From IMG/VR virus record IMGVR_UViG_3300045988_124363: a stretch of DNA of 58,818 bases; one strand, given 5' to 3'. Origin of the DNA: a virus. Each line of letters begins with the position of its first letter. Positions within the stretch are counted from its first letter, which is position 1. The translations under genes were made by a program, and so were the position numbers. Shown piece by piece: positions 2,372 to 31,192 of the stretch. The notes beneath the pieces are model-generated. The model made no database searches and was not told the origin of the DNA. It saw only the letters and a list, made by a program, of their open reading frames with translations.

Positions 2372-5300
2372 ATGGCAAACTTAACAGCAAAATTCCAGCT
2401 TATCGACGAAATGAGCCAAAAGCTGGAGGGCATTGCCGCAACTGGCGAAGCTATGCTGGACAACTGGGAATCGGCAGGAGATGCAGCGAGTGCGGCCCTG
2501 GATGGAATTTCATCCTCTGCAAGCTCTGTTGAATCGTCCTTGGACGGGGCGACAAGCATCCTCGAAAAATACAATGCAGCAGCGGACGACGCGGCCCAGA
2601 AAACCGACTACTGGACGAACGCGGTCGGCGGCTACGATAAAGCCATGATGGAAGCCACATACTCCACGCAGGAGCTTGTCGATATGGGCGTCAAGTCCAC
2701 CGCCGCGCTGGACGACCTGAACGACATGATGGCCCTCTGCGAAAAGTCGTCCGATGAACTCTCGAAGTCCGTCGAAGCATCGGCCGGCATCCATGACGAG
2801 CTGACCGCGTCCATCAAGAAAACGGGCGACCAGCTCGATGACCTCATGCAGAACGAAAAGCTCTCTGCCGAAACAAAGGACGAACTGAAAGCCGCCAGCG
2901 ATGCAGCAGCGGAAGCCCTCAAAGAACTTGCACAGGCCCAGCTTGACGCCGACGCCGCGATGCAGAACTACCAGCAGGTCATGGCATCCGGCACCGAAGA
3001 CCTTGACAAGCTGGAAGCCGCCGCAGAGCAGGCGGGCCATGCTGCCGAATCTCTGGCAGCCGCCAACGGCAAGGCCAGCGACGCCACCGACGCGCTGGCA
3101 AAGTCCACCCAAAAGGCAAGCGACGAAGCGGACAAGGCCGGCAAGACCGGGGCTGAAGCAGTTGAAACCATCGCCCAGGCCCTTGCAGCGGCCGGCATAA
3201 CGGCCACCATCAAGGAGATCACCTCTGCGGTCTACGACTTGACCGATACTTACAGCAACGCGGAAAAAATCATCGTCAACGCCACCGGCGCGACCGGGGA
3301 CGCGCTGGACAGTCTGGGCGCAAGTATGCTCAAAGCCTACTCCGGCAATGACGATGCACTCGACGCCGTGGCCGGAGCAGTTGGCGAAATCAATACCCGA
3401 CTGGGCTACACTGGCGACACGCTGTCCGAAGTCACCGGGGAATTTCTGGACTTTGCCGACATCACCGGGCAGGATGTCGTCGGCTCTGTGCAGCTCGTCA
3501 CAAAGGTGATGAACAAATGGGGCGAGGATTCTTCCAAGCTACCGAACGTCCTTGATGATTTGGCCTATGCGGGCCAAATCTCTGGCCTGTCCGTCACGAC
3601 CCTGAGTAATACCCTGATCACCGGCGCATCGTCCTTGCAGGAAATGGGCCTATCGCTCGAAAACGCCATCGGCCTGCTGGCAAAAATGGAGCTTTACGGC
3701 GTCGAGGGCACGTCCACCATCACGGCCATGCGCACCGCCGTCAAGAACTTTGCCGCCGACGGTCTGGATGCACAGGAAGCCCTGCAAGATACCATCACCG
3801 AAATTGCCAACATGAAAGACAGCTCCGAAGCCACCACAAAGGCCGTGGAAGTCTTTGGAAGCAAGGTCGGCGTGGACTTTGCGCGGGCTATCCGGGACGG
3901 TGCTATCACCACCGACACCCTGACGGGATCTCTGGATGAAGCGGCCGGGACGTTGGAACGCACCGCCGCGGCCGGCGAAAGCCTGTCCGAGAAATGGGAA
4001 AAGGCCAACAACAAGATGAATGTCGCCTTTACGCAGGTCTTGGAGCCTACCATCCATGACGCATCTGCTGAACTGGCCGAACTCTACGGCAACGTGGGCG
4101 ACTTCCTCTCTGAGCATCCCAATGTGGTAAAGGCCCTGACTGCGGTCGGCACAGGTCTTGGAACCGTGGCTATTGGCGTCGCTGGCGTTTCCGCATCTTT
4201 CGTCTTTGCAAGCTCCACCGTCAAAGCGTTCGTGTCGGCTATTTCGCCATTTGCCCCCGGCCTGTTGGTGGCTGCCGCTGCTGTTACGGCTCTGACCGCC
4301 GCCGTCACCATGCTTGGCGACAAGTATGAGGATACCTACGACGAAGCCATGTCCATGACCGCCACCACCGCCGCGCAGACCAAAGAACTGGAATCCCTCA
4401 AAGAGCAGTATGACAAAGCCTGCCGCACCTACGGCGACACGTCCGATCAGGCATCCACCCTGAAATACCGCATCGACGAGCTTTCCGCATCGCTGGACAA
4501 CAACGGTCAGAGTGTGGACGAGTATGTGGCCCGGATCGACGCTGTAATCAGCAAGCACGATGACCTGATCGACAGTTTCGGCAGCAGCACACAGAGCATC
4601 CACGACAGCGAGGTGCAGAACCTCGCGCTTGTCGCCCAGCTCGACGCGCTGGCAAGCTCCACTGGCAACAGCACCGAGAAGCAGACCCAGATGGAAGCCA
4701 TCATCAAGGAGCTAAACGGCAGCATTGACGGCCTGAACCTCACCTACGAAGACCTGACCACCAATCAGGAAAAGGCCATTGCCAGCGTTAAGGAAATGGC
4801 AAAGCAGCAGGCCCAGCAGGAACTCCAGAACGAAAAGTATCAGGAGTATGTAGACCTGCTGAAGCAGCAGGCCACCGAGCAAGAAGCTATCAAAGAAAAT
4901 AATGACGCCATCGCCGCCGCGCAGGAGCGCGTGAACGAGGCCCAGAAAGTCTATGATGACTACATTGCCGACCTCTACGCGCAAGACCCCACCGGCATGG
5001 CTACCATTTCGGCCCAGTGGTCTGAGCAGGCCGCCGCGCTCGATGCTGCCAACGATGAATTACGGCAGTACACCGACAAACAAGTCGAGCTGCAAAAGAC
5101 CCTTGGCGATACCACCGACCGGCTCGAAGTCATCGACAAGTATTACAACCAGCAGGCCGAGGACGCCAAAGCCGCAGGCGACGAGATTGTTTCTGCACAG
5201 GAAGCTGTATCGCAGGCTTACAGCGATGTCCGCTCTGACGTGGAAAAGCTCTGCGAAGCCTACAACACCGCCTACGAAGCCGCAAAGGACAGCTTTGAGG

Positions 5301-6472
5301 GCCAGTTCGGGCTATTCGATGAAGCGTCCACTAAATCCGAGGACTATCTGAACTCCAACGTCAAGGCGGCGCAAGCTGCGCTTGATTCTCAGCTCAACTA
5401 CTGGAACACCTACACGGCCAACATCGAAACCCTGAAAGCTACCTCTGCCGACGATCTGGGCATCACCGAGGAGAACTACAAGGCTTTGATGTCCTACGTC
5501 CAGGATGGCAGCGAACAGGCCGCAGGCTTGGCTGCCAGCATGGTGAGTGCCATCAACAGTGGCAACAAGGACGCCGTGTCGAAGCTGGCAAACACGCTGG
5601 CTGACGTCACCGCGAAGCAGGACGCCGCAGCGCAGGCTACCGCCGACTGGGTAACGGACTACGAGGGCCAGCTGGACGAGTTTCAGGCAAAAATGGAGGG
5701 CACGGTAGACGCTCTCGATATGTCCGACGAAGCCGGGAAGGCTGCAAAGGACACCATTGCCGAGTACGTCCAGAAGCTGAAGGATGGCAAAAAGGACGCC
5801 GTAGCCGCTGCAAAGGATGTGGCCGCATCTGTGGCCCTTGCTTTGCAGAACAGCACCACCTACACGCCGTCCGCCACTCCAACGACCACTGTGCCCGGCC
5901 ATGCAGGCGGCACAACCGACGCTGAAAATGTTTTCATCGCTGGCGAGAATGGCCCGGAGCTGATTGTCGGCAAGCAGGGGAGCACCGTTTTCCCGACCGA
6001 AGAAACCGACCGCATCTTGCAAGCTATCTCTGGCATAAGTCTGGACATCCCGGACAGATCTTCCCCGGAATCTATGCTTTCCGGCGTCCTCTCCAAAGCC
6101 TATGACGTCGTATCCGGCAAAAACTCCGACCTGTCCGCAATCGACGCGGCCTATACCAGCGTTGAAAGCGGCTTTTCCCGCCCGGCAGCTGCCTACAACA
6201 GCGTTTTGGATTCTGCCCCGCTCAACGTACCGCCTGCCACGAATGCTGCGGTATCGGGCGCACAGAACGCCCAGAGCGCACCCGGCGAGACCGTCAAGAA
6301 AATTATCCTTGAGCTTGTCGGAAAAGGTTCTGTGGAGGTTTCTGGCGGCTCTGGCAGCGGTATGAACGCAAACGACGTTCTGGAGATGATCACCGACAAC
6401 GTCAAACCTGTTCTGATGGGCATCTTGAAGCAGGAGATTTTTGAGGAGGGCCAGCTGTCGTATGAGTATTAA
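2372..6472 (+). CDS. tail tape measure protein
   Basis: 1366-aa Ala/Glu/Asp-rich coiled-coil protein with a central hydrophobic segment, in the canonical position after the chaperone. Confidence 0.85.
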   Translation: MANLTAKFQLIDEMSQKLEGIAATGEAMLDNWESAGDAASAALDGISSSASSVESSLDGATSILEKYNAAADDAAQKTDYWTNAVGGYDKAMMEATYSTQELVDMGVKSTAALDDLNDMMALCEKSSDELSKSVEASAGIHDELTASIKKTGDQLDDLMQNEKLSAETKDELKAASDAAAEALKELAQAQLDADAAMQNYQQVMASGTEDLDKLEAAAEQAGHAAESLAAANGKASDATDALAKSTQKASDEADKAGKTGAEAVETIAQALAAAGITATIKEITSAVYDLTDTYSNAEKIIVNATGATGDALDSLGASMLKAYSGNDDALDAVAGAVGEINTRLGYTGDTLSEVTGEFLDFADITGQDVVGSVQLVTKVMNKWGEDSSKLPNVLDDLAYAGQISGLSVTTLSNTLITGASSLQEMGLSLENAIGLLAKMELYGVEGTSTITAMRTAVKNFAADGLDAQEALQDTITEIANMKDSSEATTKAVEVFGSKVGVDFARAIRDGAITTDTLTGSLDEAAGTLERTAAAGESLSEKWEKANNKMNVAFTQVLEPTIHDASAELAELYGNVGDFLSEHPNVVKALTAVGTGLGTVAIGVAGVSASFVFASSTVKAFVSAISPFAPGLLVAAAAVTALTAAVTMLGDKYEDTYDEAMSMTATTAAQTKELESLKEQYDKACRTYGDTSDQASTLKYRIDELSASLDNNGQSVDEYVARIDAVISKHDDLIDSFGSSTQSIHDSEVQNLALVAQLDALASSTGNSTEKQTQMEAIIKELNGSIDGLNLTYEDLTTNQEKAIASVKEMAKQQAQQELQNEKYQEYVDLLKQQATEQEAIKENNDAIAAAQERVNEAQKVYDDYIADLYAQDPTGMATISAQWSEQAAALDAANDELRQYTDKQVELQKTLGDTTDRLEVIDKYYNQQAEDAKAAGDEIVSAQEAVSQAYSDVRSDVEKLCEAYNTAYEAAKDSFEGQFGLFDEASTKSEDYLNSNVKAAQAALDSQLNYWNTYTANIETLKATSADDLGITEENYKALMSYVQDGSEQAAGLAASMVSAINSGNKDAVSKLANTLADVTAKQDAAAQATADWVTDYEGQLDEFQAKMEGTVDALDMSDEAGKAAKDTIAEYVQKLKDGKKDAVAAAKDVAASVALALQNSTTYTPSATPTTTVPGHAGGTTDAENVFIAGENGPELIVGKQGSTVFPTEETDRILQAISGISLDIPDRSSPESMLSGVLSKAYDVVSGKNSDLSAIDAAYTSVESGFSRPAAAYNSVLDSAPLNVPPATNAAVSGAQNAQSAPGETVKKIILELVGKGSVEVSGGSGSGMNANDVLEMITDNVKPVLMGILKQEIFEEGQLSYEY

Positions 6473-7118
6473 ATACCAAATCTGGTTTACATGGAACGCG
6501 GAGCGGGAAAAAATCAGGCTGCCCGTGCTGCCTGAAAAATTCAACGTCAAGAACGGCTCCAATAACCAGAGCATTGACCTTACCGGGCTGGGAGAAATCA
6601 CGATCATGCAGAGCCGCCCGGCACTGCAGTTCAGCTTTTCCAGCTTTTTCCCGGCGGGCTATTTCCCCGGCATCAAGTCCATCATCACCGTGCCGCCCAT
6701 CCTCTACATCCGCATGATTGAGCGATGGAAGAAAAGCAAAGTGCCAATTCACTTTATCAGCACCGGGAACTATATCAACCTGTACTGCACCATCGAGAGC
6801 TTCAACTACTCTGAAAGCGGCGGCGATGTGGGCACATTCTCCTACGACATCACCTTGAAAGAGTATAGGGAAGTTTCCTTGAAAGCAGTTTCGATTGATT
6901 CTTCCCTCATTGCAACCGTGCAGAACACCACCGCCCGCGTTGACAGCACGTCCACCCCAAAAACCTACACGGTCAAAAAGGGAGACTGCCTGTACAACAT
7001 CGCAAAGTCTGTCTATGGTGACGGTGCAAAGTATTCCAGCATCTACACCGCAAACAAGTCTCTGATCGGCAGCAACCCGAATCTGATCCGGCCCGGGCAG
7101 GTCTTGAAGATTCCGTAA
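6462..7118 (+). CDS. LysM-domain tail protein (XkdP-like)
   Basis: C-terminal LysM motif YTVKKGDCLYNIAKSVYGDGAKYSSIYTANKSLIGSNPNLIRPGQVLKIP. ATG at 6462 overlaps the end of the tape-measure gene. Confidence 0.75.
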   Translation: MSIKYQIWFTWNAEREKIRLPVLPEKFNVKNGSNNQSIDLTGLGEITIMQSRPALQFSFSSFFPAGYFPGIKSIITVPPILYIRMIERWKKSKVPIHFISTGNYINLYCTIESFNYSESGGDVGTFSYDITLKEYREVSLKAVSIDSSLIATVQNTTARVDSTSTPKTYTVKKGDCLYNIAKSVYGDGAKYSSIYTANKSLIGSNPNLIRPGQVLKIP

Positions 7119-7133: not shown

Positions 7134-8135
7134 ATGGCAAAAATCCAGTTGCTTTTGATTCAGGGCGACACCACAACGGACATGACCGCCCTTGTGAAGT
7201 CCGTCCACTGGAAAGGCCGCAAGGGAAGTTCTGCCCGCACTCTGACCGTGACCATGATTGACGACAACGGCTACAAACACGCCCGCAGCGGTATTGACGT
7301 AGAAGACGGCAACCAGTGCGTTTTCTATGTGGACGGACAGGAACGCTTTCGCGGCATCCTGCTGAATCAGGGTCAGAGCAGCAAAAAGCAGCTCAAGTAC
7401 ACAGCCTACGACAACGGCATCTACCTTGCCAACAATAAGGATACCTTCGTCTATAAAGGGAAAACCGCTGATGAAGTCTTTGCCGACGTCTGCTCTCGTT
7501 TCGGCATCCCGACCGGGGACGTGGCAAAGTGCAGCTACAAAATCCCGGAGCTTACCAAGAGCAAAACCACCGGGCAGGACGCCGTGCTGGACGCTTTAAG
7601 CCTTGACTATAAGGCAACTGGCACCCGGCACTATGTCAGCAGCGACGGCGGCAAGCTCTCCCTTTTGCAGCGCAAAGATCAGGTTATTTCCTTTGTTGTC
7701 GATGGGGAAGCCAACCTGTATGACTACTCCTACACTAAAAGCATCGAGAACATCAAGACCCGCGTCAAGATGATCTCGAAAGAGGGAACGACCATCGCAG
7801 AAAAAACGAACGCTGATCTTGAAAAAAAGATCGGCATTTTCCAGGAAATCCAGCAACCGAACGAATCGCTCACCAAAGCGCAGGTCACTGATCTTGTGGG
7901 AAGCGTCCTTGAAACGCTGGATAAGCCCGAAGAAACGCTCGGCCTCAACATCTTGGGCGACGCCGACGTCATATCTGGCAAGGCCATTTTGGTACGCATT
8001 CCGCATCTGAACATCAACCGCGCCTACTATGTGGACGACGACGACCACTATTTTGAGGACAATCTGCACACCATGAGCGTGACCCTCACCACGGCGGCAG
8101 AAATCAAAGAACAGGAGGACAAAGCCAATGGCTGA
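7134..8135 (+). CDS. baseplate hub / XkdQ-like (late control D-like) protein
   Basis: 333-aa ORF with a strong SD. Position and N-terminal sequence resemble the XkdQ/YqbQ family. Confidence 0.6.
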   Translation: MAKIQLLLIQGDTTTDMTALVKSVHWKGRKGSSARTLTVTMIDDNGYKHARSGIDVEDGNQCVFYVDGQERFRGILLNQGQSSKKQLKYTAYDNGIYLANNKDTFVYKGKTADEVFADVCSRFGIPTGDVAKCSYKIPELTKSKTTGQDAVLDALSLDYKATGTRHYVSSDGGKLSLLQRKDQVISFVVDGEANLYDYSYTKSIENIKTRVKMISKEGTTIAEKTNADLEKKIGIFQEIQQPNESLTKAQVTDLVGSVLETLDKPEETLGLNILGDADVISGKAILVRIPHLNINRAYYVDDDDHYFEDNLHTMSVTLTTAAEIKEQEDKANG

Positions 8136-8580
8136 AACCAGTTTGAAGCAGATGTTTCAGAGCATGATACCAGTTGGCTCTGCCATCCTGCAGGGCACCG
8201 TTACAAAGGCAGACCCTTTGGAGATCACCGCCGAAAACGACAGCAAGCTCATTATCTCCGGCAATCAGCTTATCGTACCTTGGCACCTTACTGACTATAC
8301 TACTCACGCGGACTATACGATGGGGGACAGGGGCGAGCTGCGGAATGAAACATACACGAAAGTTGACGGCGGCCATCTGCACGTCGATTCTCGCGGCGGA
8401 AACACATCCGAAGTTAAGCACAAGCACTACATCGAAAAGCTAAATGCCTACAAAATGACCCTGAAAGTCTATAACCACCTGCAAAAGGACGATAAAGTCT
8501 ACCTGCTTTCGCTCTGCAATGGCAAGGTCTACTACGTCCTCGACCGCGTCGCGGGGCAGGTAGCAGGAAAGGACATCTAA
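8128..8580 (+). CDS. baseplate spike-like protein (XkdR / DUF2577-like)
   Basis: 150 aa, overlaps the upstream gene; assigned from its position in the Xkd order. Confidence 0.45.
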   Translation: MAETSLKQMFQSMIPVGSAILQGTVTKADPLEITAENDSKLIISGNQLIVPWHLTDYTTHADYTMGDRGELRNETYTKVDGGHLHVDSRGGNTSEVKHKHYIEKLNAYKMTLKVYNHLQKDDKVYLLSLCNGKVYYVLDRVAGQVAGKDI

Positions 8581-8581
8581 A

Positions 8582-8986
8582 ATGGCCGTTTATATCCCTA
8601 TCAACATAGCGGGTGTTCAGGACGCACAGGAAAAGCCGTCCAAAACGTACCGCCTTGACCTTGACGCGGGGAGAATCATCGGCTTTGTGGACAACATTGA
8701 AGCTGTGCAGCAGGCCATCCGAAAAGCCATCATTACCCCGCGTTTTAAGTGCCTGATCTATGATACCCAATATGGGAGCGAGATCGAGGACGCGGTCATT
8801 GCAAAGGACGCCAGCCGCGAGTATGCCGAATCCGTCATCGAGGGATTTGTCAAAGACGCGCTGGCCCCGGACACCCGCATTCTCGAATGCCACGACTTTT
8901 CGATTGAGTTTGAAAAAGACCACGCAAACATTGAGTTTATCGCCGACACCATTTACGGCGAAGCCAAAATCGAGGAGGTGATCTAA
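8582..8986 (+). CDS. baseplate wedge protein (XkdS / gp25-like, DUF2634-like)
   Basis: 134 aa, directly upstream of the baseplate J-like gene. Confidence 0.5.
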   Translation: MAVYIPINIAGVQDAQEKPSKTYRLDLDAGRIIGFVDNIEAVQQAIRKAIITPRFKCLIYDTQYGSEIEDAVIAKDASREYAESVIEGFVKDALAPDTRILECHDFSIEFEKDHANIEFIADTIYGEAKIEEVI

Positions 8987-10083
8987 TGAGCAAATCCTAT
9001 GAAGACATCCTGAAAGAAGTCTTAAACAACGCGCCGCCGGGCATTGACACCCGGCAGGGCAGCATCTACTACGATTCTATTGCTGGCATCTGCCTCACCA
9101 TCGCGCGGCTTTACACGGATATCGAAACGCAGGGCAGGCTTGTGACTATCGTCCGCGCAGTTGGCGAGGAGCTGACCGTAAAGGCAGCAGAGTACGGTAT
9201 TGTCCGCCATCCTGCGGCCCCTGCAAAGTATCATTTCTCCTATGAGGGCGAAAAGCCGTCCGTCGGCGAACGATTTTACAATGATGGCTCCTATTTCGTC
9301 CTCGCGTACAGCGACGACGGCTACTATTACCTGCAAGCCGAAGCAGCCGGGGCTACACCGCTTATCAGCAGTGGAACGGCTGCCATCCCTGTAAACGAAA
9401 TCGCGGGCATGACAGCTGCGACCTTTGGCGAGCTGATCGAAAGTGGCACAGAGGAAGAGGACGACGACAGCCTGCGCACCCGCGTGCAAGAAAAAATTGC
9501 AGGCCCAGCCGAAAACGGAAACAAGCAGCACTACAAATCGTGGTGCGAGTCCATCGACGGCATCGGACACGCCAGAATCTACCCTCTTTGGAACGGCCCG
9601 AACACGGTCAAGGCTGTGCTGATTGATTCGTCCGGCCGGGCCTGTTCCAGCGAAAAGGTCAAGGAAGTGCAGGACTACATCGACCCGGCCACGCGCGGCT
9701 ATACCGCCAACGTGGACGGCTACACCTACACCGTCGGCGACGGAACGGGGGACGGCGTTGCAAACCTTGGCGCACATTTCACCGCCGTTTCTGCCCGTGA
9801 ATTGAGCATCAATATTTCTTTTGCGGCTGATCTTGCCAGCGGCTACACAAAGGACATCGCCAAAAGTCAGGTAAAGGAAGCTGTGGCTGCATACCTCGAA
9901 GATCTCGCACTGAACGTTGCGGCCGCCGAAGATGTTATCATCCGCGCCGCTCGCATCGGTGCAATCATCATCGAGCAAGATGCTATTCTGGACTACTCCG
10001 ACCTTACCATCAACGGCGGCACAAGCAACATCGTCCCCGGCGATAACGCTATCCCCGTTCTGGGGGAGGTGACCGTTTCTTGA
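8986..10083 (+). CDS. baseplate J-like protein (XkdT-like)
   Basis: 365 aa; size and position are typical of the baseplate J/gp47 family. ATGA overlap with the upstream gene. Confidence 0.65.
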   Translation: MSKSYEDILKEVLNNAPPGIDTRQGSIYYDSIAGICLTIARLYTDIETQGRLVTIVRAVGEELTVKAAEYGIVRHPAAPAKYHFSYEGEKPSVGERFYNDGSYFVLAYSDDGYYYLQAEAAGATPLISSGTAAIPVNEIAGMTAATFGELIESGTEEEDDDSLRTRVQEKIAGPAENGNKQHYKSWCESIDGIGHARIYPLWNGPNTVKAVLIDSSGRACSSEKVKEVQDYIDPATRGYTANVDGYTYTVGDGTGDGVANLGAHFTAVSARELSINISFAADLASGYTKDIAKSQVKEAVAAYLEDLALNVAAAEDVIIRAARIGAIIIEQDAILDYSDLTINGGTSNIVPGDNAIPVLGEVTVS

Positions 10084-10937
10084 GATTCTACGGAAACCAG
10101 TTCGGCAGCAGCTATGAAGAGCTGATCTCCTACTACCCGCGCTACTACCGCAACGTTTTAGAAATGGTCGCCATCCTCAACGCGCAAGGAAAGCTGCTGG
10201 ACGACGCGAAAGCCCAGATCGAGCAAAACTACCTGAACAACTTCATCGAATACATGGACGAAGCTGCCATTTCAGACCTTGAGGAGTTTCTTGAGATTCA
10301 CAATGACGGCACAAAAACGCTCGACGAGCGGAAGAAAATCGTCAAGCCTTACTTTGCAGGCGTTGGCCGCATTTCCTCGACCACCATCAAGGAGATGATA
10401 GCAGCCTATTCCGATGCCACGGCAGATGTCCGGCTTGAGCCGTTCGACGAAGCCGGAAATAATATGCTCTACATCGACCTGACCTGCGGGCAGGGCGCGA
10501 CCGTCCTTATCAACGACGTTTTGAATATGCTCTCCAAAAAGATACCTGCTCACATCATGTACAGGCTATTTTTGCGCTATACGTCGTCGGCCGCTCACTC
10601 CTACATCGGCGCAGGCTACCACGGCACGGCCCAGCGCGTGGCCGTGCCCATCGTGGGCACGCTGCGCCCCCGCGAACTGCTTTCCACCACCTACGCGAAA
10701 GCCGGGCTGTGGAGTATCAGGCAGCAGGAAGCCGCCCGAATCGCTGGCACTCTGCGGCCGAAAGACCACAAGGCCACCACATACGCCCCGGCGGGCTGCA
10801 CCGCCTACCGTATACAGATGGCAGCATACATCAAGGGCGACATTCGCCCGGCAGACCATACCGCAACGGCCCCGGCCCCGGTGGGCGTGGCGGCTTTCCG
10901 GCAGCAAATTGAAATCAAAATTGGAGGTAACACATGA
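10080..10937 (+). CDS. baseplate/tail protein (XkdU / DUF2313-like) with C-terminal tandem repeats
   Basis: TTG start overlapping the upstream stop. N-terminus (YYPRYYRNVLEM...) is typical of this family. The C-terminus carries 3-4 repeats of about 30 aa. Confidence 0.5.
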   Translation: MRFYGNQFGSSYEELISYYPRYYRNVLEMVAILNAQGKLLDDAKAQIEQNYLNNFIEYMDEAAISDLEEFLEIHNDGTKTLDERKKIVKPYFAGVGRISSTTIKEMIAAYSDATADVRLEPFDEAGNNMLYIDLTCGQGATVLINDVLNMLSKKIPAHIMYRLFLRYTSSAAHSYIGAGYHGTAQRVAVPIVGTLRPRELLSTTYAKAGLWSIRQQEAARIAGTLRPKDHKATTYAPAGCTAYRIQMAAYIKGDIRPADHTATAPAPVGVAAFRQQIEIKIGGNT

Positions 10938-12268
10938 GCTGGAACAATTCCCTCTATACCAACGTTGGCACGGACATGATGTCCGAAGTGCTTTCCGGCG
11001 CGACCATGACGATCACCAAAGCCGTGGGCGGCGCAGGCACTACGGCCGCCGAATCGCTGGCCGCGCTGACCGACGTAAAAGACCAGAAGCAGACCCTTAA
11101 AATTCTTGGCATCGAGGACGCGACCGACAGCACCGGCAACGACGCTGGCAAGCGCATCAAAATCCAGATCACCAATGAGGACGTGGAAACCGGGTACATT
11201 CTGCATCAGGTCGGCATCTATGCAAAGCTGGCAGACGGCGACGAAACCCTGCTGATTATTATGCAGGACGACCGCGGCGTGGAAATCCCTTCCCACACGG
11301 AAAACAGCGATTTTGAGATTGAGCTTTACGGCATTATGGCAATCTCGAACGTTGCCAACATTTCCGTGACCGTTGACCCGAACGCCGTTGCATCCGTGGC
11401 GATGGTGAACAAGCAGATTGCGCAGGTCAACACCAAAATCGACAAAGCCAAAGAGGATTTGCAGAAGGAAACGCAGGAAACCTATCTGCCCCTGACCGGC
11501 GGCGAGCTGAAAGGCCCGCTGGTTATGCCCGGCGGCGGCACTGCCCTTAGTATTGAGGACAACGCCGCAACGCACAACATGGTCTATCGCGGCAAGGCAC
11601 TGGGCGGCAGCGTCACGAGCGAGCAGTGGGCAGCCATCAAGGCGGGCACGTTCAAAGACCTGTACCTTGGAGACTACTGGTCTATCGGCGGCGTGGACTA
11701 CCTGATCGCCGCTTTCAACTACTGGCTTACCTGCGGTGACACTGCCTGCAACACGAACCATCTGCTTGTTGTGCCGCGGAACAATCTGTACACCTACAAG
11801 TTCAATCCGACCAACACGACCGAGGGCGGCTACGTTGGCTCTGACCTGTACAAAAACGGTCTGACGCAGGCAAAGACCACCATCAACAGCGCGTTTGGCT
11901 CCGCGCACATCCTGAGCCATAGGCAGTATCTGGTGAATGCCGTCACCAACGGAAAGCCCACTGGCTCCGACTGGTACGACAGCACGGTGGAGCTGATGAA
12001 CGAGAACATGGTCTATGGTGGCAGACAGTTCAGCCCCATGCCGGACGGCACTGACCCGTGGAACACCTGCCGTAACTACACCATCGACAAATCGCAGCTG
12101 CCTTTGTTCCACCTTGCCCCGTGGCTGATCTGTAACAGGAACTGGTATTGGCTGCGAGACGTCGTCTCGGCAGCCCGTTTCGCGAATGTCCACAGCTACG
12201 GCGGTGCGGACTGCTACAACGCCGGCAATGCCGGTGGCGTTCGTCCCGTCGTCGGGCTGATCGGCTGA
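10934..12268 (+). CDS. tail fibre / receptor-binding protein, the DGR target (VR in the last 37 codons)
   Basis: 444 aa, last gene of the baseplate block. The C-terminus ...WLRDVVSAARFANVHSYGGADCYNAGNAGGVRPVVGLIG matches the TR except at adenines. Confidence 0.85.
   Translation: MSWNNSLYTNVGTDMMSEVLSGATMTITKAVGGAGTTAAESLAALTDVKDQKQTLKILGIEDATDSTGNDAGKRIKIQITNEDVETGYILHQVGIYAKLADGDETLLIIMQDDRGVEIPSHTENSDFEIELYGIMAISNVANISVTVDPNAVASVAMVNKQIAQVNTKIDKAKEDLQKETQETYLPLTGGELKGPLVMPGGGTALSIEDNAATHNMVYRGKALGGSVTSEQWAAIKAGTFKDLYLGDYWSIGGVDYLIAAFNYWLTCGDTACNTNHLLVVPRNNLYTYKFNPTNTTEGGYVGSDLYKNGLTQAKTTINSAFGSAHILSHRQYLVNAVTNGKPTGSDWYDSTVELMNENMVYGGRQFSPMPDGTDPWNTCRNYTIDKSQLPLFHLAPWLICNRNWYWLRDVVSAARFANVHSYGGADCYNAGNAGGVRPVVGLIG
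12159..12257 (+). repeat. DGR variable repeat (VR)
   Basis: 99-nt match to 12901..12999. All 11 mismatches are at TR adenines. Confidence 0.9.
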
Positions 12269-12274
12269 TCGAAC

Positions 12275-12299
12275 ATCCTGCGGGCTTGTACCGCAGGAT
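12275..12299 (+). promoter_or_regulatory. hairpin just 3' of the VR (possible DGR target-recognition element and/or terminator)
   Basis: Perfect 9-bp stem atcctgcgg/ccgcaggat with a 7-nt loop, 17 nt after the end of VR homology. Confidence 0.5.
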
Positions 12300-12320
12300 T
12301 GAGAGCAAGGAAGTGAGAAA

Positions 12321-12878
12321 ATGTCCATCCCGAAACACCAACGATCGCCGTCCCGATTGAATGCGCAGCACATGGCAAAGAAAATCAGTCTTGAAATCAC
12401 AACTGAGCTGGCCCGGACATTCGGTTACAGCAAGGCAAAGTTTGAAAAGCACGTCGAGGCCATGACAAAGCATCTTCCTCCCGGCCCAGACCGAGAGCAG
12501 GCGGCGCAGCAAATCAGAGAGCAGGAACAGGAATTTAACCTGTGGCTGATTGAGCAGGAAAGAAAGAAAATGCACGATCTCTCACGGGACATCCCGCTCC
12601 ATCTCCGTGGAGCAAATAGTATCTGGCCGAGTTGCCAACTAGAATTGGACGAACGGAGGCTTGAACTGGACAAAGCCATTGCTGCCTGCGGGAAATTGCA
12701 AGATGAACTAGAATATGTTGCCGAAGCTATTCCGGCAGATTTCAACAAGTATACGGGAATTGTGCTTGAGATTGACAAGCTGGTTGCCCATATCAAGAAC
12801 TTGAGGAAGTCTGACGCAAAGCGGTTCAAGGCCGCTGCGGAGAAAGCCGCCGCACCGCAGAAAATTAAGTCCGAATAA
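12321..12878 (+). CDS. putative DGR accessory protein (Avd-like by position; longer than usual at 185 aa)
   Basis: Helical, basic ORF with an AAGGAAG SD, located between the target gene and the TR as avd is in canonical DGRs. Confidence 0.45.
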   Translation: MSIPKHQRSPSRLNAQHMAKKISLEITTELARTFGYSKAKFEKHVEAMTKHLPPGPDREQAAQQIREQEQEFNLWLIEQERKKMHDLSRDIPLHLRGANSIWPSCQLELDERRLELDKAIAACGKLQDELEYVAEAIPADFNKYTGIVLEIDKLVAHIKNLRKSDAKRFKAAAEKAAAPQKIKSE

Positions 12879-12900
12879 TAACACACTGGGCAGTCTTTGT

Positions 12901-12999
12901 ACGTCGTCTCGGCAGCCAATTTCGCGAATGTCAACAGCAACGGCAATGCGAACTGCAACAACGCCAGCAATGCCAATGGCGTTCGTCCCGTCGTCGGGC
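12901..12999 (+). repeat. DGR template repeat (TR)
   Basis: Rich in AAY codons (virtual translation YVVSAANFANVNSNGNANCNNASNANGVRPVVG). Non-coding position just upstream of the reverse transcriptase (RT). Confidence 0.9.
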
Positions 13000-13112
13000 C
13001 TTTGGATTTCGCAACTGCGCATGATGAGCAAAGCTCGGTGCAGCTCTGCGAAAGGAAAGGCTGTCCATTCGTGGGAACACCACGATAAACGCCCTGCGGG
13101 GCATCAACGGGG

Positions 13113-14396
13113 ATGGCTCTGGTTACGACCAATGAGCCTAGCACTCCGTTTATTTTTATGACAAAGTTTGAAGATGCAAATATCCTGTATGAAGCAGGAA
13201 CCAAAGCCATGAAACCATCCCCGTACAAGTACGGAACACAACTCTATGAGATGAACCATCTTCTGGAAACGGCAAAGCTTCAGAAAGCTTTTCGGGAAGG
13301 AACTTATAAGCCGCAGCCGGGAGTGAAGTTCGAGATCAAAGAGCGTGGACATGAGAGGTATATTACCAGCACCGAAACGGCGGACAAGGCAGTATCGCAC
13401 ATCGTGTGCGACGAGTACCTGACCCCACTGCTGGGAAAATACCTGCAATACGATAACTCAGCATCACAGGTGGGCAAGGGCGTGGCGTTCCACCGCAAAC
13501 GCTTTGAGATCCATCTGCGGCAGTATTACGAGCAGGAGGGAACCAATGAGGGCTATATTCTGTTTTCTGACTTCTCCGGCTACTATGCTAATATCTTGCA
13601 TGAGGTCGCACTTGCACAGCTGGAAACGTATCTGGCGAAAGAAATCGCTGACCCGAAAGAACTGGCACAAGTTCTGGCGGTACTGCGGGAAACATTCAAA
13701 AGCTATGAGCTGGACGTATCCCGGTTCTCCGACGAGGAAATCCAGCGGATGTACCGGGAGAAGATCAGTTCCACGTTTAACATGGGTATTCCCTCGTCCG
13801 CCCTGACCGGGGAGAAGATGCTGCGTAAGGGAGTGGACATCGGCAACCAAATTTCGCAGAACATCGGAATCTTCCTGCCAGTGCCCGTGGATAACTATGT
13901 GAAGATCGTCTGCGGTATCCGGCACTACGCCAGATACTCGGACGATTTTTATATTATCGCCCGGACAAAAGAGCAGCTGCACCAAGTATTTGCAGGAGTA
14001 CGCCGGGAGGCGGAAAAGCTGGGGCTCATCATCAACGAGAAGAAGACCCACATTTGCAAGCTGGGCGGCCAATACCGCCACCTGCAAATGCTCTACTCCC
14101 TGCACCCGGATGGCGAAATTACCTGCAAGATTAACCCGAAAGCTATCACCCGCGAGCGGCGAAAGCTCAAAGCCTATAAGCGTTTGCTGGATGGTGGCCG
14201 GATGGAATTCATCGAGATTGAGAACAATTTCAAATCGTGGCTCTGTGCGAATTATAAGTACATGAGCCGATTACAGATTCAGAACATGGTAGCTCTGTTC
14301 AAAGAGCTGTTTGGAAAGGAACCAACATGGAAAAAGAAAAAAGGACATGGACGGTTACGCTGGCTGATGGGACAAAGCTCGAAAAGCTGGCCCTGA
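13113..14396 (+). CDS. DGR reverse transcriptase
   Basis: YxDD box (RYSDDFYIIA) and the DGR-type motif IGNQISQ ([I/L/V]GxxxSQ). 427 aa, immediately after the TR. Confidence 0.9.
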   Translation: MALVTTNEPSTPFIFMTKFEDANILYEAGTKAMKPSPYKYGTQLYEMNHLLETAKLQKAFREGTYKPQPGVKFEIKERGHERYITSTETADKAVSHIVCDEYLTPLLGKYLQYDNSASQVGKGVAFHRKRFEIHLRQYYEQEGTNEGYILFSDFSGYYANILHEVALAQLETYLAKEIADPKELAQVLAVLRETFKSYELDVSRFSDEEIQRMYREKISSTFNMGIPSSALTGEKMLRKGVDIGNQISQNIGIFLPVPVDNYVKIVCGIRHYARYSDDFYIIARTKEQLHQVFAGVRREAEKLGLIINEKKTHICKLGGQYRHLQMLYSLHPDGEITCKINPKAITRERRKLKAYKRLLDGGRMEFIEIENNFKSWLCANYKYMSRLQIQNMVALFKELFGKEPTWKKKKGHGRLRWLMGQSSKSWP

Positions 14397-14689
14397 ACCC
14401 CGGTGCGAATACGTTCCACTCTGAAACCGAGATCACCCCGGAAATGTTTGACGGCAACCTGTCGGAGGTGCATATCTCTGCCAGCGACGGCGATATGACC
14501 GGGTGCGCCTACCCGGACACCCTGCACGATGCAGAGCTTGTGCAGATCATGCAGCCCACTGATACCCCGGACAGCCAGTGGGCTTTTATCCTGCGGGAAA
14601 TCCCGGCAGATGATCTTTTCAAGGCGAAGATTCAGGCACAGCTTGACTATATCGCCATGAGCGCGGACGTGGATTTGGAGGATATGTAA
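14327..14689 (+). CDS. hypothetical protein (XkdW-position)
   Basis: 120-aa ORF with an AAAGGA SD. Its first 70 nt overlap the 3' end of the RT gene. Confidence 0.5.
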   Translation: MEKEKRTWTVTLADGTKLEKLALNPGANTFHSETEITPEMFDGNLSEVHISASDGDMTGCAYPDTLHDAELVQIMQPTDTPDSQWAFILREIPADDLFKAKIQAQLDYIAMSADVDLEDM

Positions 14690-14690
14690 C

Positions 14691-14843
14691 ATGGAGACCG
14701 AACACAGCAAGAAATTCAATGACATCAAGTTCTACTACGATCACCACATCTGGAGCAAAGCCACCGTAAAGAAAGCCTGCAAAACTGGCCGCATTACGGC
14801 TGCAGAGTATGAGGAGATCGTGGGGGAGCAGTATGCGGCATAA
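14691..14843 (+). CDS. XkdX-like small protein
   Basis: 50-aa ORF (too short for the supplied track): METEHSKKFNDIKFYYDHHIWSKATVKKACKTGRITAAEYEEIVGEQYAA, a typical XkdX-family pattern. Confidence 0.6.
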   Translation: METEHSKKFNDIKFYYDHHIWSKATVKKACKTGRITAAEYEEIVGEQYAA

Positions 14844-15015
14844 AAGCTGGCCCGACCTGTGCGAAAGCCTATTGGACAGGCTTGAAGCAGCAGGAGAGCC
14901 GACCGTCACGGAGCGGGCCGAATTTGGCGTTCTTATGGTGGATTGCTGCATGAAGGACTGCGGCGCAGACCTGCGGCCCAAATCCGAACAGATGGGAGGA
15001 GGTGAACCGAAATGA
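14833..15015 (+). CDS. hypothetical small protein
   Basis: 60-aa ORF overlapping both neighbouring genes. Confidence 0.35.
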   Translation: MRHKSWPDLCESLLDRLEAAGEPTVTERAEFGVLMVDCCMKDCGADLRPKSEQMGGGEPK

Positions 15016-15470
15016 GCCTGAAAGCCATCTGGGAAGCATGGGGGCCTGTCATGGTCACGCCTGCCGTCATCGTCCTGCTGTCCCTTGTCGAGATCGCACC
15101 CATCAAAATCAATCCGTGGTCGGCCATTATGAAGTTTTTGGGCAGCCGCCTAAACTCCGACGTGACGGCCCGCCTCGACACGATGCAGCAGTGCCAGGCT
15201 GAAACGCGAAAAAAGCTGGACGAACATATAGCAAAGGACGACGCCCAGACCGCCAGCCTTTGGCGAACCCAAATCCTGCGGTTTAATGATGAACTGCTGC
15301 ACGACCGGCGGCACACCAAAGAACACTTTGACGAAATCCTTGGCACGATCAAGGACTACGAGGGCTACTGCTCCACGCACAAGAACTTCCCGAACGGCAA
15401 GTGCGTCCACGCCATCGACAACATCAACCGCGTATATGACGAGCTTTTGGAAAGTCACGATTTTCTGTGA
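15012..15470 (+). CDS. membrane protein of the lysis cassette (possible holin or holin accessory)
   Basis: Strong SD (GGAGGAGGTG) and one N-terminal transmembrane (TM) segment (WGPVMVTPAVIVLLSLVEIAPI). Directly upstream of the endolysin. Confidence 0.45.
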   Translation: MSLKAIWEAWGPVMVTPAVIVLLSLVEIAPIKINPWSAIMKFLGSRLNSDVTARLDTMQQCQAETRKKLDEHIAKDDAQTASLWRTQILRFNDELLHDRRHTKEHFDEILGTIKDYEGYCSTHKNFPNGKCVHAIDNINRVYDELLESHDFL

Positions 15471-15484
15471 AAGGAGCTGATTTT

Positions 15485-16153
15485 ATGAGCATCGTAACCT
15501 TTACCGCCGGGGACAAAACGCCCTTGACAAAAGACTTTAAGCGCAGCGAGTTTGAATGTCCCTGCGGCTGCGCCGCCCAGATGATCGACACAGAGCTTGT
15601 GGAAAAGCTGCAGCGCATCCGGGACGTGCTGGGCGTCAAAATCAAAGTGACCAGCGGCTACCGCTGCATCACCCACAACGCAAGCAAGGCCGTACAGGGC
15701 AGCCGAACCAGTAAGCACCTGTATGGCTTTGCGGCAGACTGGCGCACCCTCAACCGCACCGTCAACCCGGTCGCGCTTGGCATCATCGCACAGGCGGTCG
15801 GCTTTGGCGGCATCGGCATCTACTGGCACCCCAAAGCGGCCATGTGCCACGCGGACACCCGCGCAGGCAAGGCAACGTGGCTTTGCACGTCGCCGGGGGT
15901 ATACCCCTCGACCACATACAACGCCTTTATTCTGCCCACCATCCGGCAGGGCAGCACCGGGGCCGCCAACCGTTCCGCAATCATCCTGCTGCAAAAGCTC
16001 TTGAAGCTCAAAGAGGATGGCAATTTCGGGCCTGCTACCACGCAGGCCTTTATTTATGCCCAGAAGCAGCACGGCTTGACCGCTGACGGTATCTGTGGCC
16101 CTGCATCGTGGCGGGCGTTGTCCGGCGCGGACAAGTACCTGAAAAAGCTGTGA
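15485..16153 (+). CDS. endolysin: M15-type peptidase domain plus C-terminal peptidoglycan-binding domain
   Basis: Motifs SGYRC..HN, SKH and HAD, typical of zinc D-Ala-D-Ala carboxypeptidase-like (M15) enzymes. C-terminal PG_binding_1-like repeat (LQKLLKLKEDGNFGPATTQAFIYAQKQHGLTADGICGPASW). Confidence 0.8.
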   Translation: MSIVTFTAGDKTPLTKDFKRSEFECPCGCAAQMIDTELVEKLQRIRDVLGVKIKVTSGYRCITHNASKAVQGSRTSKHLYGFAADWRTLNRTVNPVALGIIAQAVGFGGIGIYWHPKAAMCHADTRAGKATWLCTSPGVYPSTTYNAFILPTIRQGSTGAANRSAIILLQKLLKLKEDGNFGPATTQAFIYAQKQHGLTADGICGPASWRALSGADKYLKKL

Positions 16154-16164
16154 GGTGATGCACC

Positions 16165-16461
16165 GTGCAGGAAGTTCACATCAACATCAACCCAACCACA
16201 CGCCACCAGCGCAAGAGAAAGGACACACAGCGCGGTTTTATGGATAAAGCCGTAATCTATTGCCTTTTCATGTGTACCGTACTGGACGCCGCGATTCTGG
16301 CCCTCTACTGGCACAGCGTCACAGCCCCGGACAGTCTGGCTATTGCTGCAATGGCCGCCCCTTGGATGGTCGAGTTTGGAGCGATGGCAACCATTAAGAA
16401 GCACAAGATCACAACCCCGGCCGACGACAGCCAGCCGGACGATGAAAACAAAGGAGAATAA
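16165..16461 (+). CDS. holin-like small membrane protein
   Basis: GTG start with a GAGGTG SD, two predicted TM helices and a charged C-terminus. Confidence 0.5.
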   Translation: MQEVHININPTTRHQRKRKDTQRGFMDKAVIYCLFMCTVLDAAILALYWHSVTAPDSLAIAAMAAPWMVEFGAMATIKKHKITTPADDSQPDDENKGE

Positions 16462-16463
16462 TC

Positions 16464-16844
16464 ATGGATGAATTTCTGAAAGTCGCTATTACCGCCTGCA
16501 TTCCTGCCTTTACCGTCATTTTCGGCTGGGGCGTCAATAAGGCCGCCAGCATCGCCAACAGCTATGTGCATAACCAGTTTGTGCAGCATTGCATCCAGAA
16601 CGCCGCCAACGCGGTTTTTAACGCCGTTTCTGACGTCAACCAGACCTATGTTGACAGCCTGAAAGAAGCCGACAAATTCGACGAAGCAGCCCAGAAGCGG
16701 GCCTTTGCCGACGCTCTGGCTACTGCAAAGAAGTCCCTCACCGATGAAACCATCCTGTTCATCAAGCAGACCTTTGGCGACGTGGACGCCTACCTGACCC
16801 CCATGATCGAAGCACAGGTGCGCAGCCAGAAAACCTATATGTGA
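16464..16844 (+). CDS. holin, LL-H-like
   Basis: N-terminal TM segment (VAITACIPAFTVIFGWGV) followed by a helical soluble domain, the typical LL-H holin architecture. Confidence 0.5.
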   Translation: MDEFLKVAITACIPAFTVIFGWGVNKAASIANSYVHNQFVQHCIQNAANAVFNAVSDVNQTYVDSLKEADKFDEAAQKRAFADALATAKKSLTDETILFIKQTFGDVDAYLTPMIEAQVRSQKTYM

Positions 16845-30883: not shown

Positions 30884-31192
30884 ATGTATCAAACTGGAAT
30901 CGAACTCAGAACGACATCTTTTGACCTGACGAAACCTTTGGCCGCAATGGCCAAACGTGCCGAGCAGGACGGTTTTGAATTCTACTACACCCGGCACATC
31001 GCCGAGAACGTTTTTGAACTGGAACTGCGCAAGGACTACATCGGCGTCAAAACCAAAGTGCCCGCTGGATACCTGCAAAAGTACATCCCGCACAGTTGCT
31101 TAGAGGGCTTTTTGATGGGCGAATATGACCGCCTGTCCTATATGCTGGGAGCTGTCACCGGCTGCAACAATGCCCCGGAGGACTTGAAATGA
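30884..31192 (+). CDS. hypothetical protein
   Basis: 102-aa ORF. Confidence 0.45.
   Translation: MYQTGIELRTTSFDLTKPLAAMAKRAEQDGFEFYYTRHIAENVFELELRKDYIGVKTKVPAGYLQKYIPHSCLEGFLMGEYDRLSYMLGAVTGCNNAPEDLK

Follow-up and report, generated by a model that had tools for sequence, protein, structure and literature searches.

The stretch of viral DNA analysed here, called the window below, is 58,818 nucleotides long (IMG/VR record IMGVR_UViG_3300045988_124363). It carries phage genes for a tail sheath, a tape measure protein, baseplate J, a Mu gp48-like protein, a serine integrase, terminase and portal. Upstream of the tail-fibre gene lie the sheath, the tape measure, XkdP/Q-like proteins, baseplate J and the gp48-like protein, and PHROG and Pfam matches to tail-module proteins were obtained for ORFs 24-1130, 2372-6472, 6441-7118, 7134-8135, 8986-10083 and 10080-10937. 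We take this gene order to correspond to that of the PBSX xkd genes. The initial annotation had described a PBSX-like phage with a contractile tail, and the sheath, tape measure, baseplate J and Mu gp48-like genes bear this out. The nearest genomic matches were Faecalibacterium MAGs and an isolate of F. tardum; the host is Faecalibacterium. Among annotated phages, megablast of positions 8000-16500 returned a single match of 210 nt in the baseplate region. The following features were located downstream of the baseplate genes:

10934..12268, + strand: target gene of a diversity-generating retroelement (DGR), a 444-aa tail fibre (ORF and PHROG tail-fibre matches)
12159..12257, + strand: VR, 99 nt at the end of the homology in the fibre gene, 11 nt short of its stop codon
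12275..12299, + strand: GC-rich hairpin/cruciform, 17 nt 3' of VR, ATCCTGCGG-GCTTGTA-CCGCAGGAT
12306..14322, + strand: approximate extent of the accessory-TR-RT cassette, missing as a block in 17 other viral contigs
12321..12878, + strand: accessory gene, 185-aa protein predicted to be all-helical (AF2 model, Foldseek, linkage to RT)
12901..12999, + strand: TR, non-coding, 99 nt with 24 adenines
13005..13152, + strand: structured spacer RNA between TR and RT, beginning at an invariant GATTTC, candidate analogue of the BPP-1 'Sp' region
13113..14396, + strand: DGR reverse transcriptase (RT), ORF from the first ATG at 13113 (Pfam, PHROG, PDB profile, motifs)

The repeat pair and the tip of the fibre

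In an ungapped comparison, TR and VR aligned over 99 nt at an offset of 742 with 11 mismatches, at TR positions 12918, 12919, 12933, 12939, 12945, 12946, 12951, 12957, 12966, 12975 and 12976. All 11 are adenines in TR; 13 of the 24 TR adenines are unchanged in VR, and the 75 positions with another base are all identical. The probability that 11 mismatches fall on adenines by chance is C(24,11)/C(99,11) = 2e-8. The coordinates and the mismatches listed in the initial annotation were thus reproduced to the base, and an adenine-specific pair lies at the 3' end of the tail-fibre gene. The homology ends sharply at both edges. An independent repeat search of positions 10900-14700 found this pair as the sole long direct repeat, and no third TR-like copy or second VR target was present on either strand of the whole window.

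The changed codons, read in the frame of ORF 10934-12268, are AAT, AAC or AGC in TR (N N N N N N S N) and encode R H Y G D Y G G in VR, the same residues that had been reported before. The TR adenines fall within 13 codons of the VR frame, namely 10 AAY, 2 AGC and one other, so that about 3.7e13 variants of the fibre tip without a stop codon are possible from this TR.

Residues 1-171 of the fibre match PHROG tail-fibre families (best E 1.7e-47). Judging by its sequence relatives, the C-terminal part of about 235 aa is a receptor-binding tip with a putative, divergent DUF6273-type domain. Of 27 sampled members of the tip family, which numbers over 6700 relatives, 12 matched Pfam DUF6273 (best E 4.5e-7); the window fibre itself had no match in Pfam. 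For the nd4 and nd12 targets, published models give the DUF6273 domains a C-type-lectin fold and place VR at the surface (PMC10743442), which is indirect support for such a fold in the window tip. A search of the PDB with the tip-family profile matched no relevant chain. The tip family and Mtd showed no resemblance in profile-profile comparison (probability 0.1-0.2), Mtd being a single sequence, which limits sensitivity. The AF2 model of the tip domain, built from a 27-sequence alignment, had a pLDDT of 49, and Foldseek matches to it were rejected as meaningless, so that the model gave no confirmation of a C-type-lectin fold.

Reverse transcriptase, accessory protein and RNA elements

The next gene after TR encodes a reverse transcriptase, as had been proposed: ORF 13113-14396 matches Pfam RVT_1 (4e-10) and PHROG 1423 reverse transcriptase (3e-45), and contains both the DGR motif IGNQISQ, which fits IGxxxSQ, and the catalytic YSDD. 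The ORF is full length and keeps every family-invariant catalytic residue (I243, G244, Q246, Q249, Y275, D277 and D278). When the family profile was searched against the PDB, the best match was bRT (8ub7, 3.6e-15), followed by Cas6-RT-Cas1 (1.7e-7) and a group II maturase (4e-7); chain 8ub7_A and BPP-1 Brt agree at every residue of the stretch shown in both alignments. The nearest phage RTs come from phages with described DGRs. On profile matches, the RT therefore groups with bRT and not with group II intron, retron or defence RTs, which speaks for a DGR. Since the RNA structure described below spans 13005-13152 and more distant homologues start at the equivalent methionine, the conserved start of the protein is probably the ATG at 13158.

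The accessory ORF stands in the position of Avd, and its family co-occurs with the window RT family in 111 of 115 loci. By sequence the protein is not recognisable as an Avd. Pfam, NCBIfam, PHROG and PADLOC gave nothing meaningful for the protein, its family profile found nothing relevant among PDB sequences, and hhalign of the family against bAvd gave a probability of 0.1-0.2, bAvd being a single sequence, which limits sensitivity; one of 47 family members matched Pfam 23S_rRNA_IVP (E 0.015). In the AF2 model (pLDDT 82), the predicted fold resembles Avd-like helical bundles. The top Foldseek matches were PDB 2gsc and 2rld and an 'Avd-like protein' in BFVD, with a probability of 1.0, a target TM of 0.67-0.81 and weak E values of 0.02-0.1. 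The model also predicts an additional N-terminal segment of about 55 residues beyond the Avd-like fold. The family comprises at least 872 unannotated clusters at 50% identity.

The hairpin at 12275..12299 has a predicted 9-bp stem (-16.7 kcal/mol) and is kept across clades with compensatory stems (CCTGCGG/CCGCAGG, CCCACGG/CCGTGGG, GGCGGC/GCCGCC and GCGCCCC/GGGGCGC). Homing of the BPP-1 element requires a hairpin at this position (PMC3240598), and by analogy the window hairpin is a probable target-recognition element. Its 7-nt loop, GCTTGTA, departs from the 4-nt 5'-GRNA consensus reported for phage DGRs. In one sister clade the hairpin has a T-run on its 3' side and could be no more than a terminator. 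A promoter and terminator consensus scan yielded nothing beyond shuffled expectation. TR and VR share GC-rich 3' ends, and since these ends are identical there is no IMH/IMH* difference inside the repeat to explain directionality.

For the spacer RNA between TR and RT, RNAalifold predicted 39 pairs, 15 of them with compensatory changes. Pairing was found in 98.3% of cells, compared with 40-49% when the partners were slid, and none of 500 shuffles scored as high as observed. No Rfam family was detected in positions 12000-14500 at E <= 1, including any intron or msr/msd RNA.

Variation among relatives and loss of the element

TR and VR are paired in the same architecture in 62 related loci; of the 805 mismatches counted there, 781 (97%) fell on TR adenines. 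Among cassette-bearing pairs of genomes whose 400-nt flanks are 95-100% identical, the VRs differ at 8-17 of the 24 A sites and at 0-4 of the other 75 positions; for the window and locus L010, with 100% identical flanks, the values are 16 of 24 and 2 of 75. When 19 distinct VRs were compared, taken from relatives whose TR is window-like, variation was seen at every one of the 24 TR-A sites, with a mean minor-allele fraction of 0.42 against 0.03 at the other 75 sites. In contrast to VR, the TR is nearly invariant among 52 related TRs from viral and metagenome contigs (24 unrelated chance matches were thrown out of the metagenome TR-flank pattern scan). Across related genomes, VR diversifies while TR stays constant. 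The initial annotation had set variation by position as a test beforehand, and among these genomes VR variation is concentrated on the TR-adenine sites, an outcome in favour of a DGR.

The nearest relatives whose TR is identical to that of the window are L001 (95.6% nucleotide identity) and L077 (RT 98% identical), and each has its own VR, differing only at A sites. The 24 adenines of the window TR are the maximum in the census of its TR sub-clade. It is from relatives that we infer present activity in the window phage itself.

In some relatives the TR is without two, about half or all of its adenines, while the flanks and the RT are intact. An adenine-free TR would be the expected product of iterated self-homing, in which TR is copied into TR, and this would be irreversible. 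A tentative reading, less likely than not, is that TR in this DGR lineage is incompletely shielded from its own machinery, and the identical 3' ends of TR and VR are part of it. Taken with the VR-plus-hairpin tips on unrelated phages that have no cassette and with the large unannotated accessory family, this would turn the lineage into a natural system whose genomes record how DGRs keep their direction and decay, and possibly how they diversify targets in trans among co-resident phages.

The 17 viral contigs that carry the same fibre tip and no cassette belong to otherwise unrelated phages, with a tip of 79-94% nucleotide identity. In these loci the homologue of ORF 14327-14689, with its ribosome-binding site, comes immediately after the fibre stop codon and the hairpin, and no accessory or RT homologue was found in any of them. 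A cassette at another site on these contigs was also considered. The RT scan of viral contigs picked up none of them and none has a second copy of the 22-mer, though such pattern-based scans would not prove absence. Closely related copies of the tip without a cassette mostly have near-identical VRs. In addition, locus L030 has a VR from another clade than its TR, with 40 mismatches, just 13 of them at A. Eroded TRs and targets without a cassette are natural experiments on the one-way information flow of DGRs and on their death.

Interpretation and comparison with known systems

The TR/VR pair, the accessory ORF, the DGR-type RT and their order were all found, and we are highly confident that the locus is a complete DGR on a temperate, contractile-tailed Faecalibacterium phage. 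The proposal that a complete DGR rewrites the tail-fibre tip is thereby supported, and the element is apparently functional. Such an element would work as follows. A transcript spanning the accessory gene, TR 12901-12999 and the spacer 13005-13152 would be bound by the RT and the helical accessory protein, and the cDNA made by the RT would be true to TR at every position but the adenines, opposite which any base may be inserted. The cDNA would then replace VR 12159-12257 at the 3' end of the fibre gene, a step for which the GC-rich 3' end common to both repeats and the hairpin at 12275-12299 would serve as guides, and the resulting variants of the fibre tip may let the phage change its receptor specificity. 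What we propose by analogy with BPP-1 is the RNA-protein complex, cis-priming by the spacer, the function of the hairpin and the switching of receptors.

An unlikely alternative is a fossil element, its parts still recognisable, that no longer diversifies in the window genome, so that the 11 differences record past activity. Decay does occur in relatives, some of whose TRs have lost some or all adenines, the VRs of cassette-less relatives are mostly 'frozen', and Gulyaeva et al. saw no DGR signal at read level in several Faecalibacterium prophages (PMC11792537). The window, however, has a full-length RT with all the invariant catalytic residues, a TR with the maximal adenine number, and an intact hairpin and spacer RNA, and the identical TRs of L001 and L077 stand beside different VRs with A-site differences only.

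It is considerably less likely still that the VR differences arose mainly by recombination among circulating alleles of the fibre tip rather than by retrohoming in this lineage. The tip is clearly a mobile module, since the same tip is found on unrelated phages without the cassette, and the VR and TR of L030 come from different clades. Recombination would nevertheless bring in linked differences at positions other than A, whereas here identity in the flanks runs right to the edge of the repeat, and it is at TR-A sites that the VRs differ; ordinary recombination also leaves the 97% adenine specificity over 805 mismatches unexplained.

We consider it extremely unlikely that the RT belongs to another retroelement or a defence system (group II intron, retron or DRT/Abi) and that the repeat pair is a coincidental duplication: the weak partial NCBIfam and PADLOC matches to group II, retron and DRT models are expected for any RT, the NCBIfam ones are far under the curated family cut-offs (PADLOC lists none), bRT has the same top PADLOC model ('RT' PDLC01136) and leads the PDB matches by 8 orders of magnitude, the motif IGxxxSQ is present, intron and msr/msd RNA families were not detected, and the adenine specificity has p = 2e-8.

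A complete DGR thus remains the preferred reading. On this reading, the part being rewritten is the receptor-binding tip of a Faecalibacterium prophage lineage that is abundant and uncultured, a finding that bears on host-range prediction and on gut virome assembly. DGRs are frequent in Faecalibacterium prophages and already well described (PMC5883640, PMC11792537), and the window element is a real further example of a well-documented type of system. The catalogue of Faecalibacterium phage DGRs gains an RT lineage at most 27% identical to those described, with a spacer RNA conserved within it and an accessory family of its own that goes unrecognised in domain databases.

BPP-1 is a short-tailed phage, whereas the window phage is a myovirus. 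The canonical gene order proposed for the window, target, accessory ORF, TR and RT, was found and is that of BPP-1 (mtd-avd-TR-brt). In both systems VR lies at the 3' end of the gene for a tail receptor-binding protein, the TR-to-VR differences are adenine-specific, the repeat has a GC-rich 3' end, a GC-rich hairpin stands 3' of VR, and a structured RNA lies between TR and RT. The BPP-1 RT is the nearest solved homologue of the window RT, yet the two are only 24% identical; the window protein is longer (427 or 412 aa, compared with 328 aa), with an insertion of about 59 aa between SDFSGYY and IGNQISQ and a longer C-terminus. The accessory protein has 185 aa compared with 128 aa in bAvd, and no sequence similarity was detected between them. 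Unlike in BPP-1, there are no IMH/IMH* mismatches inside the window repeat and the 7-nt hairpin loop is not GRNA, and the putative DUF6273-type tip is without sequence similarity to Mtd.

The described DGRs of Faecalibacterium phages are those of Roos, Pioen, Lelie, CP11, Taranis, Toutatis and Brigit (PMC5883640, PMC11792537), temperate phages of the same host genus as the window phage. Roos, Pioen, Lelie and CP11 have DUF6273-type targets with VR at the C-terminus of the domain, and in Toutatis, Taranis, Brigit and Epona an Avd homologue was likewise not found by sequence. The window RT is only 24-27% identical to the RTs of the seven phages listed first and is therefore a separate lineage, and the window has no nucleotide similarity to any of the seven genomes. 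The gut phages nd4 and nd12 ('tentaclins') and Roseburia phage Shimadzu carry further DGRs of gut Bacillota phages, with RTs 25-30% identical to that of the window; each of these elements has a pair of targets, and in one of the pair the VR domain is N-terminal, in contrast to the single C-terminal VR of the window.

The nearest cultured relative of the window cassette is Acutalibacter phage Fontainebleau (ON453893). Its RT is 55.7% identical to the window RT, the same accessory family lies upstream, the order target-accessory-TR-RT is shared, and its TR/VR pair has 19 mismatches, 16 of them at A. Fontainebleau differs from the window phage as a 39-kb phage of another host genus with annotated minor tail proteins, and its target, a hypothetical protein, is shorter (about 311 aa). 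In its deposited record, the DGR-related annotation is on the RT only.

The repeat pair and the genes around it

The variable repeat (VR) in the fibre gene and the template repeat (TR) downstream of it form a gapless alignment of exactly 99 nt, and a repeat search identified this pair as the sole long direct repeat in 10900-14700. The elements concerned are:

10934-12268, tail fibre of 444 aa, the target of the diversity-generating retroelement (DGR)
12159-12257, VR
12321-12878, accessory ORF of 185 aa
12901-12999, TR
13113-14396, reverse transcriptase (RT)

The two copies differ at 11 positions, and the TR carries A at each of them (12918, 12919, 12933, 12939, 12945, 12946, 12951, 12957, 12966, 12975 and 12976). 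Thirteen of the 24 TR adenines are unchanged in the VR and the non-A positions are identical (75/75); the random chance that 11 mismatches among 99 positions would all fall on the 24 A is 2e-8. Read in the target-gene frame, the altered codons are AAT, AAC or AGC in the TR and encode R H Y G D Y G G in the VR; the stop codon lies 11 nt beyond the end of the repeat. The initial annotation, which had described the pair and its adenine-only mismatches, was accurate in every detail, including the TR coordinates of the mismatches. No other TR-like copy was found when both strands of the window were searched. The 3' ends of TR and VR are identical and diverge only past the repeat (TGATCGG... after the VR, CTTTGGATTTC... 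after the TR), whereas in Bordetella phage BPP-1 they differ.

The target's N-terminal domain (residues 1-171) matches PHROG tail-fibre families, and its gene is placed after baseplate J and a Mu gp48-like gene. The fibre tip, formed by the C-terminal ~235 aa, is one of a very large family (more than 6700 matches) whose members occur behind several different N-terminal parts. Pfam DUF6273, modelled by others as a C-type lectin (PMC10743442), was matched by 12 of 27 sampled members of the tip family (best E 4.5e-7), the window target itself being below threshold. The C-type-lectin fold was not confirmed for the tip, as its AlphaFold2 model was unusable (pLDDT 49), and sequence comparison of the tip with Mtd, the BPP-1 target, gave no match; support for the fold is indirect and comes through DUF6273. 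Another ORF (14327-14689, plus strand, 120 aa), which shares its first 70 nt with the RT 3' end, matched no family. It always accompanies the fibre-tip module, with the accessory-TR-RT cassette present or absent, and therefore may encode a fibre assembly or chaperone protein.

The RT matches RVT_1 and PHROG 1423 and contains IGNQISQ and YSDD; residues I243, G244, Q246, Q249, Y275, D277 and D278 were invariant in a 12-member alignment of the family. When the family profile was compared with the PDB, bRT (8ub7) was matched at 3.6e-15, followed by Cas6-RT-Cas1 (1.7e-7) and group II maturase (4e-7). Chain 8ub7_A and BPP-1 Brt agree at every residue in the part of the sequence that both alignments show. 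Matches to the NCBIfam group II, retron and DRT models were far under the curated cut-offs, and those to the PADLOC DRT models were weak. The order target-accessory-TR-RT is the same as mtd-avd-TR-brt in BPP-1.

The accessory ORF had no match in Pfam, NCBIfam, PHROGs or PADLOC, nor in the PDB by sequence. Its family comprises 872 clusters at 50% identity (E <= 1e-3), and in a local HMM search it adjoined this RT family in 111 of the 115 fetched loci holding either (RT identities 39-100%). The AlphaFold2 model was all-helical (pLDDT 82; helices 14-31, 38-49, 56-99, 106-136 and 141-177). Its best Foldseek matches in the PDB were 2gsc and 2rld (probability 1.0, target TM 0.67-0.81); 2rld is entered there as 'S23 ribosomal protein family'. 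Avd was first compared to these two four-helix-bundle proteins. In BFVD, Foldseek matched the model to two gut-phage 'Avd-like protein' entries (probability 1.0, target TM 0.79 and 0.67). The Foldseek E-values were weak (0.02-0.1), hhalign of the family against bAvd, the BPP-1 accessory, gave no signal, and only 1 of 47 family members reached Pfam 23S_rRNA_IVP (E 0.015). The accessory is likely to be a divergent member of the Avd-like bundles, lengthened at its N-terminus by ~55 residues. This reading agrees with Cornuault et al., who found Avd homologues in only two of the Faecalibacterium phage types and proposed that a different small protein acts in the rest (PMC5883640).

Variation and erosion among related loci

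Related loci were collected in three scans: a 22-mer of the repeat 3' end gave 24 viral contigs, the RT protein gave 52 viral and 10 genomic loci, and a TR-flank pattern gave 19 viral and 57 metagenome stretches. The TR-flank matches, pooled with the loci already collected, included 52 segments that were TRs of the family; 24 further segments matched by chance and were unrelated. When repeats were detected de novo, 62 loci showed a TR/VR pair with the same architecture, and 781 of their 805 mismatches (97%) were at TR adenines. Where two cassette-bearing loci were 95-100% identical over the 400 nt upstream of the VR, 8-17 of the 24 TR-A sites differed between their VRs, against 0-4 of the 75 others. 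The window and related locus L010, with a 100% identical flank, differed at 16/24 A and 2/75 non-A sites, both non-A differences tracking a TR variant. Among 19 distinct VRs whose TR resembles that of the window, all A sites varied, with a mean minor-allele fraction of 0.42 versus 0.03 elsewhere; the TR was nearly invariant among 52 copies. It had been proposed to look for VR polymorphism confined to TR-A sites in sequencing reads; assembled relatives, used here in place of reads, show this pattern. The DGR is probably active or recently active, which in this very genome is judged from the relatives.

The fibre tip was also found in 17 viral contigs (L002, L004, L005, L007-L009, L011, L012, L014, L016-L019 and L021-L024), which were compared with window 11600-12311 and 14313/14388-14604. 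They contain the same tip module (11600-12311, 79-94% identity), a VR and usually the hairpin downstream of it, which was missing from L008 and had a disrupted 3' arm in L004 and L009. The accessory-TR-RT block (about 12306-14322) was absent, and a homologue of ORF 14327-14689 lay directly 3' of the tip. Beyond this they have little in common with the window at the nucleotide level, and the fibre tip is therefore a mobile module. In seven of eight close pairs of these contigs the VRs differed at no more than 4 positions, which fits frozen alleles; the exception was L005 versus L009, with differences at 11/24 A sites.

Some related loci carry a changed template:

L028 (IMGVR_UViG_3300045988_010864), 3785-3883, adenine-free copy at the TR position (0 A); same allele in L098 and L121
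L031 (IMGVR_UViG_3300045988_057662), 3766-3864, copy at the TR position with 1 A; also in L089

All canonical A sites are substituted in both (canonical relatives have 22-24 A), together with 10-17 non-A changes, while the flanks (accessory 3' end, spacer RNA) are near-identical to their counterparts in canonical relatives, and full-length RT ORFs are present. One homing event would leave about half of the adenines unchanged, and the VR, always re-templated from the TR, would be unable to accumulate adenine losses; on these premises an adenine-free copy would imply repeated rewriting of the TR from the TR, and the L028 and L031 templates look like the result of erosion by repeated self-homing. 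The adenine-free allele occurs in three loci, all with the same VR, which are probably one genotype. The L068 TR (3770-3860) has 12 A (clade norm 22-26), and the L068 VR stems from this eroded TR (7 mismatches, 6 at A). Smaller changes were AA to GG at TR positions 75-76 in L006/L054, loss of three A in L109 and loss of A14 in L118. In L030, VR 3031-3129 and TR 3766-3864 differ at 40 positions, only 13 of them at A; its TR belongs to the L029 clade and its VR and fibre tip to the L041 clade. The cassette and target of L030, a recombinant, are no longer a matching pair.

Hairpin and spacer RNA

Two elements lie next to the repeats:

12275-12299, hairpin ATCCTGCGG-GCTTGTA-CCGCAGGAT, 17 nt past the VR, -16.7 kcal/mol
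13005-13152, spacer RNA structure (RNAalifold)

A GC-rich hairpin located 4-34 bp past the VR is needed for efficient homing in BPP-1, and hairpins of this kind, with a 4-nt GRNA loop, are common in phage DGRs (PMC3240598). The window hairpin has the loop GCTTGTA instead of GRNA. Its stem showed compensatory changes across clades, and the CTTG(T) loop core was kept. A T-run follows the hairpin in a sister clade (RT 58% identical), where it could double as a terminator.

Downstream of the TR, beginning at an invariant GATTTC, 15 diverse sequences gave a structure of 7 helices and 39 pairs, 15 of which had compensatory changes. Paired cells amounted to 98.3%, versus 40-49% when the partners were slid by 1-3 columns, and 0 of 500 shuffles reached the observed values. 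No Rfam family matched. Because distant RT homologues begin at a Met equivalent to window 13158 and the conserved RNA structure fills the region before it, the true RT start is probably 13158, not 13113. According to Handa et al. (bioRxiv 10.1101/2023.10.23.563531), BPP-1 and many other DGRs have essential RNA structure downstream of the TR, with tetraloop-capped stem-loops among its parts; the predicted spacer RNA fits this picture.

In the spacer RNA and the homologous positions of L003-L087, the motifs GATTTC, GAAAGGAAAGG and GGTTACGACC were invariant. A further stem capped by a tetraloop occurs in one sub-clade (GCCC-UGCG-GGGC in the window, GCCC-CGAAA-GGGC in relatives). In helix 1, UUUC right after the TR pairs with a GAAA run; this helix might be a template-primer duplex.

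Phage genome, host and known systems

The window comprises the ~59 kb genome of a temperate myovirus:

24-1130, sheath
2372-6472, tape measure
35621-37345, minus strand, large serine recombinase
49119-50540, large terminase

It also encodes XkdP/Q-like proteins, baseplate J and portal and, downstream, an M15 peptidase with a peptidoglycan-binding domain. With head genes at 49-53 kb and the sheath at the other end, it looks like an entire phage genome, circularly permuted. A relative, IMGVR_UViG_3300045988_088646 (59,904 bp), was 95.6% identical across the 14.4 kb compared. ORF 31189-33693 (plus strand, 834 aa) has PHROG matches among DNA helicase as well as DNA methyltransferase families, suggesting that the two enzymes are fused in it.

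The DGR interpretation of the initial annotation held: the adenine-specific repeat pair, the bRT-like RT, the BPP-1 gene order and VR variation at A sites in relatives all agree with it, and the element is almost certainly a DGR. The nearest genomic relatives were Faecalibacterium MAGs, with an RT 98% identical, and the F. tardum isolate CLA-AA-H175, with one 59% identical. Acutalibacter phage Fontainebleau has the nearest cultured phage cassette, with the same architecture (RT 55.7%), and the RTs of described Faecalibacterium phages were only 24-27% identical to the window RT. DGRs were reported in 10 of 18 phages among Faecalibacterium prophages (Cornuault et al., PMC5883640), and DUF6273-type targets with a C-terminal VR in Faecalibacterium phages (Gulyaeva et al., PMC11792537). 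Because DGRs are so common in these prophages, the window DGR is a further example of a known system, ordinary for the phages of this host apart from its unannotated Avd-like accessory family and its non-consensus cis elements.
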